Below are positions 9,268 through 64,000 of a stretch of 64,000 nt of DNA, in pieces. How positions within the stretch are numbered: the first letter of the stretch is position 1; every line of letters begins with the position of its first letter. The DNA lies in assembly GCA_965113315.1 (NCBI GenBank), contig OZ220363.1; one strand, written 5' to 3'. The stretch is from Podarcis vaucheri (lineage: Eukaryota). The position numbers were made by a program, and so were the translations under genes. Below the pieces are notes generated by a model, which worked only from the letters and a program-made list of their open reading frames with translations, was not told the DNA's origin and did no database searches.

Positions 9268-9555
9268 TGTGGAGTTTGGAGTTTACAGGGTTAAAACTCC
9301 TTGGTGTCCTGTATCTGGGGAGGGGCCTGATGCAGGGCCGTATGTCACAGGCTTTGTCTGTGAAAGTTGGTTTCACTTTAGACTGAGAGACGCTGCAAAA
9401 GAAGCTGGGTGTGCTCTAAGCACTGGAGAGATGCCGGAAAGTTCTGATGAATTTATTGCTGTGTAAATAAACACTTTTAGAGATAGCAACGAACTGTCTC
9501 TGGACTTGATTTATCCCTCTATCTCACACAGACAGCAGGACTGCTGCGACTCTGT
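9268..9555 (+). repeat. Copia 5' LTR, 3'-truncated
   Basis: Starts TGT; matches 12270-12550 with 8 substitutions and one 7-bp duplication. Confidence 0.92.
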
Positions 9556-12210
9556 CAAGCTTGTAAAAAATTGAAGGTCACGACATGCACATATCCCAGG
9601 TCAGAAAGGAGGACCAGCAAACCCTTTGAGCTGGTTCATGCAGATTTATGTGGTCCGATGCAGGTAGCTTCTTTAAGTGGATCGAAGCATGTTTTGGTTC
9701 TGATTGATGATTTTTCGAGACACACCTGGCTGTTTGCACTTAAACACAAGTGGGAGGCGGCTGCACTGATCAGTGGAGGCGGTGGAGCTGCGTTTCTCTG
9801 CCAGGGTGGTTTCCTTTCAATCTGATTGAGGGGCGGAGTTCACAGGTTCTGCGCTGCAATCTTTCTTCAGGCAGAAAGGTATCAGTCATCGATTGACTGC
9901 CCCCTACAGTTCGCAACAGAAAACACCGCACCCTACAGGAAGCAGCGAATGCTATGCTGGCAGCCTCGGGTCTGCCACAGCGCTTTTGGACCGAGAGTTA
10001 TAAGACGGCATGCTTTGTTCAGAACAGGGTGTTCAATTCAAGTGTGGGAGACACGCCCTACTTTCTGCTGCATGGGAAAAACCCTAAAGTGGATTTCTTG
10101 CGTGTGTTTGGCTGCGAGGCATGGGTCCTCATTCCAAAGGCCACTCGCAGAAAGGGTGAACCAAGATCTAGGAAAATGATATTTGTTGGCTATGAGCCGG
10201 GCTCAAAGGCGTGGCGTTTCGCATACCCTACTGGCAACCAGTCTAAGCTGCTTATTAGCGTCAGTGCTGAGTTTTGTGAGCAGAGTGGGTGGAAACGTCT
10301 TCACGGGAACCTGGATGTTCTGTTTGACTCAGATGAGGAAGAGGAGGAGGATGAAGCTGAACCTGTTGCTGAGGTGCACAGTCCACAGCCACAGAGTCCA
10401 GAACCAGAATCTCCAAGGCAGAGGCTCCGAACCTCTCCAAAGGGGAGTCCCAAGACCCCTCCACAGGTCTCTGTCAAGTCTGAGCCAAGGAGTGAGCCAT
10501 CCTCGCCTGCAGACCCAGCTGTAAAGCTTAAAAGGTGCAGCAGGTCAGAGGGGGAGATTTCTGACACAGAGGATGGTGTGGCTGGCCCAAGTGAATCAGG
10601 CGCAGTTCCAGAGTTCACGCTGAGGAGATCAGCAAGGTCAACCAAGGGAAAGCCACCAGAAAGGTACGAAGCCACTAGCGTGTGGGTAAGTGTGGCTAGA
10701 TGTGAACCTGAATCCTTTGAGGATGTTCAGAAGTTGCCTCAGGAAGAAGCTAGCAAATGGCGTGAGGCGATGCAGAAAGAGATGAACTCAATGGAGTCTC
10801 TTAGTGTGTTTTTACTCACACAGCTGCCGGCTGGCAAGCAGGCTGTGAGTTGCAGGTGGGTTTACCATCTTAAACCCACAGAAGCTGGAGAACCACAGTA
10901 TAAAGTTAGGTTAGTAGCTCGTGGATTCACACAGAAGAAGGGAGTCCACTTCACGGAGGTCTCTTCGCCAACCTCGAGGGCCGAGACTTTGAGGACACTT
11001 TTAGCAGTTGCTGCAGAGAGGTTGGAAGGTGAACCATTTTGATGTGGATGTTGCCTACCTGAACTCAGACCTCCAGGAGGAGCTGTACATGCTTCCTCCT
11101 CCAAGGTTTGAAGTCAGTGTGCCAGGCATCGTGTGGCGGTTGCACAAATCCATCTATGGATTACGCCAATCTGCCAGAAATTGGAACATGTGTCTGAATG
11201 AAGCCTTAGAAGAGCTAGGTTTCAGGAGAAGTGTTGCGGACAGCTGTCTTTACCTTAGAGGTTCAGGTAAGATGCAGCAAGCTGCTCAGATTTTTGTTGA
11301 TGATATCTTGATCATGACACAGACAGGTAAACAAGTGGAGAAGTTTGCTAAGGAGCTTGGAAAATGGTTCAAGCTCAAGCACCTTGGAGACGTCAAGTCG
11401 TATCTAGGTGTAGAGATAACGAGAGCAAGAGATGGAAGCTTTTTGCTCAGCCAGAAAGGTAAGATTGAACAGTTGCTTGAGAAGTTCAGAATGTCTGAGT
11501 GTGCAGGTGCCAAAACACCCATGGGGGCTGGTTACGTGAAAGAATGTCAGCAAGTAGAACGCGTTGTGTTCGAAAATACTGAACTCTTTCAATCAGCTCT
11601 GGGCAGTCTGCTGTATCTGTCACAGTGAAGCAGACCAGACATAGCGTTTGCTGTCAATCTGCTCAGTAGAGAGGCTTCAAGTCCTAGTGTGCAGGCCTGG
11701 AATGGTATTAAATGGGTGCTACGTTACCTGCAAGATACCAAAGATTTTTGCCTCAAGATGTCAGCTGAGGGTAGTATCAAGCTGACTGCATGGGTGGATT
11801 CAGATTAGGCTAACCTTGAGGACCGCAAATCAGTGTCAGGACTAGTGGTGAAGTTTGGGAACTCAGTAGTTGGGTGGAGGTCCCGGAAGCAAAGTCTCAT
11901 AGCGCTTTCATCTACTGAGGCTGAGTTCAGTGCGCTATCTGAGGTTTGCAGAGAGCTGGAGTTCTATGTGTGTTTGGTCCAGGAACTCTGTGGAGAGCAT
12001 TGTCTTCCCATCGTGGTGCATGAAGACAATCAACCGTGTCTCAAATTGGCCGAGACGGCGCAATTCAACACCAGGACCAAACATTTGGACATACGTTTTC
12101 AGAATGTGTGTCAGAGCGTTCGGAGGGCTCTAAAATACTGTCCCTCAACCAAGAACCTCGCTGATGGTTTCACAAAACCATTAACCTTCCAGAAGCATGA
12201 GGAGTTCTGT
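9553..12210 (+). pseudogene. Copia pol remnant (integrase, RT, RNase H)
   Basis: CQAC..PFELVHADLCGPM, FVGYEPGSKAWR, KVRLVARGFTQ, KSIYGLRQS, FVDD, SSTEAEF, RTKHLDIRF, ADGFTKPL; stops at 9827, 11626 and 11806, plus frameshifts. Confidence 0.93.
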
Positions 12211-12269
12211 GAAGGTGTGTTTGGGGTGAGCATTGTTGCTTATTTCCCCAGATGCAGGGCAAGAGGGGG

Positions 12270-12624
12270 TGTGGAGTTTGCAGGGTTAAAACTCCTTGGT
12301 GTCCTGTATCTGGGGAGGGGCCTGACGCAGGGCCGTATGTCACAGGCTTTGTCTGTGAAAGTTGGTTTCACTTTAGACTAAGAGACGCTGCAAAAGAAGC
12401 TGCGTGTGCTCTAAGCACCGGAGAGATGCTGGAAAGTTCTGATGGATTTATTGCTGTGTAAATAAACACTTTTAGAGATAGCAAAGAACTGTCTCTGGAC
12501 TTGATTTATCCCTCTATCTCACACAGACAGCAGGACTGCTGCGACTCTGTTTTCCTGCCCAGGACAGCCCCAAGCAGAACTATGCAGGGAAGCGCTGACT
12601 GGACGGCAGGATTTAATGGCCAAA
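12270..12624 (+). repeat. Copia 3' LTR (355 bp)
   Basis: TG directly after the PPT, contains AATAAA, ends ...GGCCAAA next to the TSD (terminal CA imperfect). Confidence 0.9.
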
Positions 12625-16822: not shown

Positions 16823-17257
16823 TGTAATGGGAATTGGGGTTGCTTGTGCGTAAACTGCAAACTGCTCCAAGCTGGTTGTATAGCTAAACCTTTCCCTGGT
16901 TTGACAGCCCTTACAACGCGACTGTCTCAGTCACTGGCAGAATCCGTCAGTGGGCGTTTCCTAAACTTCTTCCAACATAAAAATTCCTTGACTCCAAGTC
17001 TCCTCCTAGATTCTCTGGGCGGAAGCTTTCTGCGCAGCGTAGGCATGCCAAGCGGAGGTCCTGTGCTCTCTCCGCTGATCTCACTGGAAGAGTCTCGGAG
17101 CCTCCCCTCCGCAGTACTCTCAGCCTCCCCTTTCTCCCTGGTGTCCCCTGGATTTCCTTCCCCAGCGGAAGCTCTCTCTCTCTCCTTGCTAGTTCCCTCC
17201 CCTGCATCATTGGAGAGTCTTACCTCTCCTCTTGCCTCTGATGGCAGTTCCCTGACA
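16823..17257 (-). mobile_element. Gypsy solo LTR (435 bp) related to the LTR at 62477
   Basis: Minus strand TGTCAGGGAACTG...TTACA; perfect 5-bp TSD ATGCA (16818-16822, 17258-17262). Confidence 0.93.
16927..17256 (-). CDS. LTR-encoded ATG-less ORF (109 codons), putative C-terminal extension of the retrotransposon polyprotein
   Basis: Open from LTR base 2; C-terminus LRRKLPPRESRRRLGVKEFLCWKKFRKRPLTDSASD* conserved with 62478-62825. Confidence 0.65.
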   Translation of the reverse strand, partial: VRELPSEARGEVRLSNDAGEGTSKERERASAGEGNPGDTREKGEAESTAEGRLRDSSSEISGESTGPPLGMPTLRRKLPPRESRRRLGVKEFLCWKKFRKRPLTDSASD

Positions 17258-59945: not shown

Positions 59946-62476
59946 TAATATACAATCATAAACTCAAAAAAACTTAATGATATATTTAATGGTGCTAAAA
60001 AAAACCCTATTCTAACATTGGACAGATTCCATTTCATATGAAAATAATTATCCAGAATACTCCCACTTTGCCTCCATTAATTTAAGCACTTCTGTAATCT
60101 TCCTTTTCCTTTTCTCATGTTGTCTACATCATTCCCATTAGCTGATCCATGCCCGATGCTCTGAGTATAGTACTATTGGCCCTTATTCAACTGCAAATGT
60201 GCAGGTCTGTCAGATAAGTAATTAGGGATGGACAAATAGGTTGATTTCAGTTCTCTGTTTCTTAAATTCAGTTCTTACATTTCCACGGCAATTTGTGTGT
60301 TTGTGTGTGTGTGTTTAAAAAATTCCTCATGAGAACTCATCAGCATTTTAGTGCTAATTTCTCTCAACGCACAAAAATGCAGTTTTGACTACTATACAGA
60401 CTTTTTCAATCAATTTCCCCTAATATTATTAAGCATCTTTGTGTGCCATTTTCATTAATATATGCATTTATATGCTCATTTTACCTTGCTAAATGCATTT
60501 TCTTCATTGCATGGTTGGAGAACTGCACTGCAAAACTAAGAGAAGTGCAATTTGCTGGATGGGTGCATTTCTTCTCTATCTCTAGTAGTAATTATACCTA
60601 GAAGTTATTTAACAGAAAGGAAGTATAGGGGGAAGGAACCCTCCTAAACAGCTGATATGTATGTGCTCTTTCTTGTAGGGGCTATAAACTTCTAGCCCCA
60701 GTTCCTGCATCATGTTGCAGAAACCGTGTGTGCAGCATAAATTGGCATGTGCAAGTCTTTATTGAGCTAGGGCAGAAATGGGGAACCTGTGGTTTTCAAG
60801 CTGTTACTACACTCAAATGCCCATAACCCTTCACCATGTTACCGAGGGAGCTTGAGTCCAACAATTTCTGATGAGCCATTGGTTCCCCATCCCTGAGTCA
60901 GGGGGACCTTTCTTGGGTATATCTACATCTACATCCTAAGCTGGGCCATGATGATTACATTCCAGAAAAATACGTAACATTCCTTTAATACAAAACCACC
61001 CGCCTGTGAATTTGGCACCATAGGCCTCCCCGATAAAATGTTTTTTGGGAGGGGGGAGGTCACGGAGGCGGCCCTGGGCCAGTGGCAATGGGAGGAGGAG
61101 GAGACTGGGCACCAGAGAGGAGGAGTTGCCAGCCATTGACACCATCCTGATGCCTCATTTGGCTCCACTCTCTAGCTCCTAGCATCCCTGTTTCACACAT
61201 ACATCATGTGTGCATCATCACCCCCTCAATCTTCTACTTAAGTTGGCACTTCTGGAGAGCCTAATCTTTCCATTTCAGTTTCTCTTAGCTTCCTATTTTT
61301 CTGTTCATCAATTTCCATATCAGTTTGCAATATATATTTTTAACATAAAAGCATTTTAGTGTAATATACACACCTTTGTACACAATCTTCCAGAATATAC
61401 ACATTTTTGTGAGAACATTTCCATAATAAAATGCATTTTGGTATATTGTTTTTATTAATATATGCAATCTTATGCACACTTTCCCCAAATACACACTTTT
61501 TTGTTGGAGAACTGCATCATAAAATTCAGAGAAGTGTGTATTTTGAAAGCTAGCTGTGTTTTGCTTCAGGTGTTGTTCTAGGAAGTATGAATTCCTCCCC
61601 ATCCCTACTCAGTGGCAGAAAAGTTCCCCAGATCTGCAAAGGAACAGCAGCTGTTGTCTCTCACTAACTTTTATAGCTGCCAACAGGCCCCATATTTTCT
61701 ATTTCTAAGAGGATTACATTCAACTTTCCCTGCTACATCCCTCTTCTAATTTTTCCCCTTGTTTAACCCCCCCCCCAATATTCACAGGTCTCATCCAACA
61801 TCTCACAATTGTTAATTTTTCAAAGTTGTTCGTATTTCCTCCTCTGTTCTCTTCAAGTCTGTTGCCTTGTTGGCCCAACATGAGGTTTTTATTTAATTGC
61901 CCAGTCTAGGCCAACAGAGAGCTAATGGAAGCCACTGATGCCAAGTAAATTGGAAATAACCCAAAGTAAATTGAGTTTGCTTCCATAATAACACACTGCC
62001 TCAATTCTGTTTTATAGATATATACACTTTTAGAATAAGTCTACTTCCTTGACTTCTTTTTCACTTTTCCCCTATAATTTATATAAAGATGACAAAATGA
62101 CATTGGTGACCCCTATTCTCTCAAAATTTCCAGGCAGGACTTCCGAATGGTATCTGGTCTAACTTTTGACAGGTGTGAACAGATTATTAACAGAGATTGT
62201 GGATGGATATTTCCTTCTGGCTATAAAAACACAAATATCCATTAATTAAACCAGCTGCTGTTACAATTTTTAATCGGTTAAGGACTTTTTTTAAAAAACA
62301 AACAAACTTACCTTAAAATATGTAAGTTAAAGGTATTAGACATGTTTTAAGTATTCCTGACATCATATAGCATATATGTAGTACAACCCATTTTAATGTA
62401 CTTAGCATGTTGTGATATTTTACTTGTATGGTTGTTGATTTAATTTTGTTCAGGTTTGTGACCACATAATAGATAT

Positions 62477-62929
62477 TGTCAGGGAACTGACATCAGAGGA
62501 AAGGGAGTTGGTAGGGCTCCCAGAGACTGGGAGAGAGTCAGCAGCTAAAGCAGGGACAAGGAGGGGGAGCGAGGGGTCTCTGGAGGAGGAGCTCAGTAAT
62601 GCTGAGAGAGACGCAGCAGCCCAGGCAGGAAACAGCAGGGGAGAGAAAGGGGTGAGAGACACTTCCAGCGAAAATAGCGGGGAGGTGTCAGAAGCAACTG
62701 CAGGGAGACCCATGCTTCGCCGGAAGCTGCCACGTCGTGAGTCCAGGAGACGCGTTTCCGTTAAGGAACTTCTTTGCTGGAAGCGCTTCCGCAGGCAGCC
62801 ACTGTCAGACTCTACTAGTGACTAGAGCAGACATGTCTGAGGAGCTCTGTCACACACAGAGGTTTGTGGGGCCGCACAAACTCTGAAGGGGCACAATTTT
62901 AAGCACAAGCAGCTAATCATCCCCTGACA
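62477..62929 (+). repeat. Gypsy 5' LTR (453 bp)
   Basis: TGTCAGGG...CCCTGACA 8-bp inverted termini; both ends align with the solo LTR at 16823-17257. Confidence 0.9.
62478..62825 (+). CDS. LTR-encoded ATG-less ORF (115 codons)
   Basis: VRELTSEE...LRRKLPRRESRRRVSVKELLCWKRFRRQPLSDSTSD*; codon-level conservation with 16927-17256. Confidence 0.65.
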   Translation, partial: VRELTSEERELVGLPETGRESAAKAGTRRGSEGSLEEELSNAERDAAAQAGNSRGEKGVRDTSSENSGEVSEATAGRPMLRRKLPRRESRRRVSVKELLCWKRFRRQPLSDSTSD

Positions 62930-62931
62930 GC

Positions 62932-62942
62932 AGTCTGACAGT
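62932..62942 (+). promoter_or_regulatory. Self-priming primer-binding site
   Basis: AGTCTGACAGT is the exact reverse complement of ACTGTCAGACT at 62801-62811; no TGG tRNA-type PBS. Confidence 0.75.
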
Positions 62943-62974
62943 CTTTGTACGCTGCCTGTGCAGGAGAAAGCATC

Positions 62975-63988
62975 ATGAGCAACCCAGCCGGAACCGGAGA
63001 GGCAGGGGTTGGAGCTGGTCCAAGCTTGGAAGAAAGGTATCAAGCTCTGGAGGTCCAACTTGCGCTGCAGACGGCGAGGCTCGAGGAGAGAAGGGCTCAG
63101 GATGCTGACAAAAAGGGGAGAACCACTCAGTTCCCCAGAAAGGTACCAGGATTGGTGCAGAAGTTTGGGGGGGACCCCAAGGATTACCATGCCTTTAGGA
63201 CCGAGATGCAATATGCCCTGAATGTGCAGTTTGATGAGTTCCCTGATGAGGAATCGCGAGTTGCTTTCGTAATTGGGCATCTTGAGAAGGGGGCGCGGGA
63301 CTGGGTTCGACCCCTGATGGCAAAGCACAACGATATCCTAAAGGACACTATGAAATTCTTTCGTGCAATGGATATCATGTTTTCCAGCGATATTGAGGAA
63401 GGGGTGGTGCGCAGACAGTTAATGGCTTGCAAGCAGGGAAGCAGATCTGTCCGTGAGTACTGGACTGAATTTACCATGCTGATTCACAGATTGGGGTGGG
63501 ATTTATCGGCAGCACCCATTCAGATGCTATTTGAAGAAGGTCTTTCTTCAGCTGTGAAAGACGAGCTGGCCAAGAGCCCCAGGGCGGTGTCTATGGATCA
63601 GCTGACCAAATCTGCGCTGACCATTGGAGCGCGCCAGGAGGCAAGAGCCTTGGAGAGGCGGGAAGGGAGAGGGGAACGTTGGAAGGAGTTACGCATTCCA
63701 GACATTCCTGAGCCAGCTTTCCCGCCGGCAGAGCCGATGGAAATCGGAACAGCCCGCGCGCGCGCAGTTTCAAAGCCCAGTGAGGGGGCGAAGAAGGAGG
63801 GAAAGGGAGCCCGGAAATGCTATCTCTGCCAACAGCCAGGCCACTTTGCCAAAGTCTGCCCCCAGAGGAAGGAATGGCAAGGGATGGTGGGAGCAGTTGA
63901 GGGGGAAGAGCAGGGAGAAACGGAGCAGGTAAAAGCCAACGCCTGGTTGCCAACGTCAGGGCACTGCAGCCAGGCCAAAGAGCAGTGA
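62975..63988 (+). CDS. gag: Retrotransposon Gag (capsid and CCHC nucleocapsid), 337 aa
   Basis: ATG at 62975; QGSRSVREYWTEF major-homology-like motif, EPMEIG, CYLCQQPGHFAKVC zinc knuckle; no stops or frameshifts. Confidence 0.93.
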   Translation: MSNPAGTGEAGVGAGPSLEERYQALEVQLALQTARLEERRAQDADKKGRTTQFPRKVPGLVQKFGGDPKDYHAFRTEMQYALNVQFDEFPDEESRVAFVIGHLEKGARDWVRPLMAKHNDILKDTMKFFRAMDIMFSSDIEEGVVRRQLMACKQGSRSVREYWTEFTMLIHRLGWDLSAAPIQMLFEEGLSSAVKDELAKSPRAVSMDQLTKSALTIGARQEARALERREGRGERWKELRIPDIPEPAFPPAEPMEIGTARARAVSKPSEGAKKEGKGARKCYLCQQPGHFAKVCPQRKEWQGMVGAVEGEEQGETEQVKANAWLPTSGHCSQAKEQ

Positions 63989-63996
63989 AAGTGCCC
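63928..63996 (+). promoter_or_regulatory. -1 programmed ribosomal frameshift signal (gag-pol)
   Basis: G_GTA_AAA in the gag frame, 6-nt spacer, H-type pseudoknot; -1 frame open to the window end. Confidence 0.78.
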
Positions 63997-64000
63997 GTGC

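Follow-up and report, generated by a model that had tools for sequence, protein, structure and literature searches.

A lizard chromodomain Ty3/gypsy retrotransposon that very probably primes reverse transcription with the 5′ end of its own RNA

The window, that is, the whole 64,000-nucleotide stretch of Podarcis vaucheri DNA that was analysed, holds the 5′ end of a full-length chromodomain Ty3/gypsy element of 5,560 bp with two identical long terminal repeats (LTRs) (Table 1). Because the 3′ copy is identical and the GATAT target-site duplication is present, the limits of the 5′ LTR are fixed at 62477–62929, and its ends match the motifs TGTYANR...CNTNACA given for Sushi LTRs. Judged by the reading-frame layout alone, pol overlaps gag in the −1 frame. 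Within this overlap (63928–63975) lies a candidate −1 frameshift signal whose slippery site is atypical: a GGTAAAA heptamer, in phase with gag, and a 10-bp stem 6 nt further on. The pol ORF of 1343 codons contains Pfam domains in the order PR-RT-RH-IN, followed by SH3 and chromodomain, which is the Ty3/gypsy domain order; the chromodomain lies at the integrase's C-terminus (PF00385, E 1.5e-11, residues 1095–1144). In a PDB search the best match was Ty3 RT, and nothing more specific was returned.

The element of the window belongs to a family designated A, which is young and large: 40 of 40 scored matches were identical across 301 bases, and the pattern of the junction between LTR and primer-binding site (PBS) was found at 797 places in the genome. 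The corresponding pattern of clade E was found at 2456 places, and the search for family G gave one match. A looser PBS pattern returned mostly chance hits, only 5 of the 30 loci examined resembling LTR junctions, and was rejected. Sister family B is represented in the window by a solo LTR; 42 of its 55 LTR-PBS junctions, together with many Gag hits, lie on contig C41 of the genome (G000), which has a length of 41.3 Mb (~2.6% of the genome) and may be the W or another non-recombining chromosome. The window also contains a copia-type LTR element (9271–12550) with 285-nt repeats that are 96% alike and with frameshifted pieces of pol. The repeat pair 9271/12266 flanks this element and was set aside as not related to the finding described below.

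Table 1. Positions in the window of the features of the element and of the related solo LTR.
Feature	Position	Strand	Remarks
Solo LTR, sister family B	16823..17257	-	ATGCA duplication on both sides; aligns to the window LTR; primer-equivalent site 16941-16951
Left target-site duplication GATAT	62472..62476	+	same 5 bases after the 3′ LTR in neighbouring stretch L031
5′ LTR, 453 nt, TG...CA	62477..62929	+	100% identical to the 3′ LTR at L031:5285-5737
LTR part encoding the Pol C-terminal tail (in the 3′ copy)	62477..62825	+	1343-codon ORF ends at LTR position 349; stop TAG 62823-62825
Predicted self-primer (first 11 nt of predicted transcript)	62801..62811	+	exact complement of the PBS, covaries; start site predicted
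U5 arm of predicted U5-leader stem	62903..62913	+	10/11 pairs with 62951-62961; compensated counterparts in sister families
2-nt spacer GC, predicted terminal dinucleotide of cDNA	62930..62931	+	best pairing at spacer 2; trimming inferred
PBS, not tRNA-type	62932..62942	+	exact reverse complement of 62801-62811
C directly 3′ of the duplex, putatively copied from the 5′ cap G	62943..62943	+	
Leader arm of predicted U5-leader stem	62951..62961	+	pairs with 62903-62913
gag (capsid, CCHC knuckle)	62975..63988	+	Pfam Retrotrans_gag, Ty3_capsid, zf-CCHC
pol frame start, -1 relative to gag, running past the window end	63901..64000	+	

The initial annotation of this DNA, made from the letters alone, had placed 2 nt (GC) past the LTR end an 11-nt PBS complementary to the element's own LTR. 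Both the coordinates and the complementarity proved exact, the LTR site reading ACTGTCAGACT and the PBS its reverse complement AGTCTGACAGT. It had also stated that a TGG-starting tRNA PBS is absent, and indeed the PBS has no TGG and cannot pair with a tRNA CCA end. Among the 1060 11-mers downstream of the LTR, this is the sole one with a perfect complement inside the LTR, and such a match at any spacer of 0–4 nt arose in 44 of 20000 resampled LTRs; the primer/PBS match exceeds chance. On the side of the first primer base the pairing stops at the site and does not extend beyond it. Pairing was best at a spacer of 2 nt in the window element and in 17 of 17 other full elements, spacer 1 being equally good in one of them.

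As for the covariation of the two sites, it had been predicted that the PBS of the sister family would change along with its LTR, and family B does have the predicted PBS, AATCCGTCAGT. The search with this predicted PBS as the query, a pattern which itself demanded it, matched 55 places, 54 of them exactly and the other with one change. When 30 of these 55 loci were examined, 23 paired at 11 of 11 positions at the normal distance, in one the partner site was displaced to 380 nt, and six had one mismatch (a G-U in three), so that pairing was imperfect in 7 of the 30 copies; among 30 loci chosen by the LTR alone, one had an internal region, and its pairing was 10/11. In family A, the first 50 junctions listed included 46 perfect pairs, 14 of them with a compensated variant, while in clade E perfect pairs numbered 38 among the first 50 of 2456 and 9 of the other 12 had a mismatch at primer position 1. 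The search patterns fixed PBS positions 1–4 (family A) and 1–3 (clade E), leaving most PBS bases unselected. Moreover, when the LTR site was anchored without the PBS, primer positions 2–10 were fully paired in 49 of 49 copies of family A (one of the 50 was not anchorable and was dropped) and in 47 of 50 copies of clade E. Permuted pairing gave means of 29.0 (A) and 17.3 (E) and maxima of 41 (A) and 29 (E); the copies are related, so these permutations and the pairing counts overstate independence.

Full elements found by their Gag gave the same picture. Among 17 of them, 14 paired at 11/11 and 3 at 10/11 positions, always with the 2-nt spacer; three of the 20 stretches fetched for this set were skipped (two without a usable LTR end and one without an LTR pair), and in a further batch of 20 stretches 7 were without an LTR pair. 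Altogether, the fetched loci of the families of this genome contain 15 distinct, perfectly paired primer/PBS sequences. In clade F the primer/PBS duplex is 10 nt long. This clade (L203–L217) is a separate, chromovirus-like one with single gag-pol ORFs of ~1,560 codons, a self-complementary PBS of 10 nt and an R/U5 of variable length (179–293 nt).

With the exact pairing, the covariation as predicted and the lack of a tRNA match in a partial tRNA set, the self-priming reading of the initial annotation is supported, and we consider it very probable that these 11 LTR bases, forming the capped 5′ end of the element's RNA, serve it as the primer of reverse transcription.

Such priming would place the start of transcription at 62801, and the upstream sequences of the related families are informative in this respect. 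In clade E, 49 of 50 copies carry TATTAA at −31 from the primer site, a GATAAA stands near −30 in clade F, and family B has a T-rich, TATA-like stretch at the corresponding upstream position, whereas family A has no TATA box and shows CTTCTTTG at −33 to −24 instead. Downstream, examples of E and G carry AATAAA at +70 to +75; unlike these, families A, B and C lack AATAAA from the predicted start to the end of the LTR (62801–62929 in the window). With both the TATA box and AATAAA missing from family A, its predicted start rests on homology (a common TGG at −23) and on the pattern after the duplex described below. The initiator consensus BBCA(+1)BW, which had been recognised at 62801, does match there, but it carries little weight, because BBCABW occurs 8 times in this LTR, and it was dropped as evidence for the start site. 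Predicted folding gave the duplex a probability of 0.96–1.0 at positions 2–11 with the RNA starting at 62801 or at 62761 alike; that is to say, folding does not locate the start, because the duplex is equally stable with an RNA that begins 40 nt earlier. The fold of the whole region was not unusual (z −1.18) and was likewise rejected as evidence.

Tf1 of fission yeast is described in the accessible text of bioRxiv 10.1101/2022.12.06.519325 as requiring two more duplexes that flank the primer duplex, the three together forming a "pretzel". In the lizard families, a predicted stem between U5 and the leader is clear in A, with compensated forms in B, C and D. A duplex at the end of U5 stands out clearly in E; in A it is weak or ambiguous.

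A C stands directly 3′ of the duplex in nearly all copies: in family A in 48 of 50, in B in 30 of 30, in E in 49 of 50 and in F, where it comes one place earlier, in 42 of 44 distinct sequences. It follows both an 11-nt primer starting with A and a 10-nt primer starting with G. The LTR base ahead of the primer is C or T and not G, so this C is not templated by the genome. In clade E this C has mutation hotspots on both sides: with all columns used for the tree, 9, 1, 13, 11 and 8 changes fall on PBS+11 to +15, none of 300 background columns has more than 6, and ten copies with identical flanks carry 8 haplotypes there. The single change at +12 is not low when compared with the background mean of 1.31 and is distinct only against the neighbouring columns. 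The bases after the fixed C are a mixture of T, A and C. Family B shows 7 changes at +13 (1 of 312 columns is as high). In family A the hotspot is weak, with 3 changes at +14 (2 of 318 background columns are equally high); copy groups of 12 and 10 in this family have zero variation and one copy has a substitution. A nearest-neighbour profile and a tree without the test columns were rejected, having inflated the hotspot (6 changes at +14 of family A, which become 3 on the all-column tree). One family A copy, L288 (G000:C1:54537570-54537970), has an 11-nt tandem duplication at the LTR-PBS junction, TGACAG being present at the LTR end and in the PBS; the duplication looks like a slipped plus-strand transfer.

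Reverse transcriptases are able to place a C opposite the cap. As for Tf1, its cDNA retains a PBS copied from the primer and its reverse transcriptase adds non-templated bases, as reported in the accessible part of PMC11042837. We are therefore inclined, with some reserve, to regard the C and the hotspot as the copied 5′ cap plus non-templated additions, and thus as a genomic footprint of priming. It is also conceivable that self-priming holds and that the C has another origin, being ancestral, selected for structure or a cap-independent preference of the reverse transcriptase. Single invariant columns are common in these alignments, the hotspot of family A is slight, and some reverse transcriptases add C without a template, all of which would suit such an origin. 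However, the C follows the duplex in clades A–D, E, F and G and moves by one place with the 10-nt primer of F, and the next bases in E are mixed, so that only the first added base is fixed; we hold an origin other than the cap to be possible and somewhat doubtful.

A conserved RNA structure that serves packaging, translation or stability, with something else as the primer, would also explain a paired LTR and PBS. The second stem, between U5 and the leader, covaries as well in families A–D, so structure is selected here, and the duplex forms wherever the RNA begins. Nevertheless, the pairing falls exactly at the PBS position, with a fixed spacer of 2 nt and a length of 10–11 nt, in clades that are only ~30–35% identical in Gag; the element is without any other primer site; and the hotspot flanks the end of the duplex opposite the first base of the primer. 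A structure of this kind without a priming function is accordingly quite improbable. Still less credit can be given to a host tRNA fragment or other small RNA as the primer with the LTR match as a secondary matter: half-tRNA priming does exist in other LTR elements, according to the part of PMC6317226 available, and the host tRNAs compared were a partial set of 27 sequences and 10 anticodon types only (best internal match 8/11, best 3′-end match 6/11), but the PBS does not start with TGG, and each of 15 different PBS sequences has its match in its own LTR, which is a stronger argument than the partial tRNA set.

Priming from the element's own RNA may then be pictured as follows, the first steps by analogy with Tf1. 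Transcription would begin at 62801; nucleotides 1–11 would fold onto the PBS, aided by the U5-leader stem; an RNase H cut after nucleotide 11 would free the primer; and minus-strand synthesis would begin at the GC spacer. The spacer would later be trimmed by the integrase, as terminal dinucleotides are in retroviruses in general. We further propose that plus-strand synthesis would run to the capped end of the primer and copy it back into the PBS, and that a C would be placed opposite the cap, with untemplated bases sometimes added and then fixed at strand transfer. A PBS rewritten in each cycle would explain both the tight covariation and the hotspot. In general terms, self-primed elements would leave a copy of their transcript's 5′ end in the genome, the PBS being recopied in each cycle, the cap G becoming C and the next bases being randomised; opinion here leans only slightly towards this being so. 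If it is, the combination of PBS, C and hotspot would prove self-priming by sequence only and locate the start site to a single base in any genome; should it be a footprint of cap copying and strand transfer, self-priming could be tested from genome sequence alone in any candidate group.

The primer site has a second use in this element. It occupies LTR positions 325–335, ahead of the Pol stop at LTR position 349. The initial annotation had assigned the codons P-L-S-D-S overlapping the primer to an ORF of the LTR; these codons are there, but a separate LTR ORF is rejected, since the 1343-codon Pol ORF enters the 3′ LTR and ends there, so that they belong to the C-terminus of Pol. Its further claim that the same bases act as initiator, primer and codons is right about the overlap, with the correction that the codons are translated from the 3′ LTR and the primer comes from the 5′ copy. 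Comparison of the Pol tail with the sister LTR over 37 codons gives 16 synonymous codon changes and 9 non-synonymous ones, from which it follows that the reading frame in the LTR is under selection. The U3 of family B is open in the Pol phase in 22 of 25 copies and in the other two phases in 0 and 9. In 8 of 16 clade E elements the long ORF stops 22 nt inside the predicted R, and the codon phase of the primer is the same, while in the remaining ones the ORF ends elsewhere, mostly via breaks; in clade F, Pol reaches into U3 and stops before the primer site. Read from these frames, the predicted primer bases double as codons in A, B, C, E and G, taken from the other LTR. The tail past the chromodomain (L031:5285-5633 in the 3′ LTR) has ~200 amino acids, acidic first and with a basic motif at the end, in which a conserved Trp stands seven codons ahead of the primer codon in clades A–E and G. 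It is unusual for one sequence to be held by three constraints, as where promoter, primer and Pol tail overlap, and if the PBS is indeed recopied in each cycle, a codon change in the integrase tail would reach the primer site within two cycles in the lizard elements.

The closest proteins over this tail are three UniRef entries from Podarcis muralis. Two of them, named "Gypsy retrotransposon integrase-like protein 1" (P0002 and P0003), are 89% and 69% identical over the tail and end in the same PLSDSTSD, the comparison being one of protein records only. The accessible text of PMC3059260 describes plant chromoviruses of CRM group A in which the polyprotein also runs into the 3′ LTR. CRM elements differ from the lizard element in having a tRNA-Met primer and a CR motif encoded in the LTR, whereas in the lizard element the chromodomain precedes the LTR and it is an acidic, then basic, tail that passes the predicted start site. 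Our literature search found no report of Pol overlapping a self-primer, nor of a PBS followed by a cap-like C and a hotspot; the primary Tf1 papers lay outside this search, and both may already be known.

Self-priming as proposed for the lizard element adds a further, well-supported case to an existing proposal, and the mechanism is not new for the group. Butler et al. (2001) are reportedly the cited source for self-priming in the Tf1/sushi group. In the literature as far as it was accessible, self-priming is described as demonstrated for fission-yeast Tf1 and as predicted or implicated elsewhere, and the available parts of PMC6317226 and PMC4600332 already propose it for vertebrate members of Tf1/sushi; those of PMC5341516 and PMC5371799 contain nothing that changes this reading. 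What the lizard families, with their ~800 and ~2,450 junction matches, contribute is strong covariation evidence for self-priming in a vertebrate.

The features of the Tf1/sushi group found in the window element are the domain order, the chromodomain, a PBS that is not of tRNA type and matches the own LTR, and a CCHC Gag with pol in the −1 frame. With the Sushi chromoviruses of vertebrates it shares the CCHC Gag, the −1 gag-pol overlap and the LTR ends, for which the visible portion of PMC3601003 (Table 3) was used. In Tf1, the first 11 RNA bases show complementarity to the PBS, and RNase H cuts between bases 11 and 12 (PMC7175516, accessible part). Accordingly, the likeness to Tf1/Tf2 of Schizosaccharomyces pombe lies in the 11-base complementarity to the PBS, the chromodomain integrase and, in part and as predicted, the flanking duplexes of the "pretzel", to which would be added the copying of the PBS into cDNA with non-templated additions, reported for Tf1 (PMC11042837, in part) and proposed here for the lizard element. 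Tf1 has one ORF and no CCHC according to the available text of bioRxiv 10.1101/2022.12.06.519325, whereas the lizard element has a CCHC knuckle in Gag, pol in the −1 frame and a Pol that reads through the 3′ LTR over the primer. Self-priming has been shown by experiment in Tf1/Tf2, and in the lizard element it is inferred from sequence.
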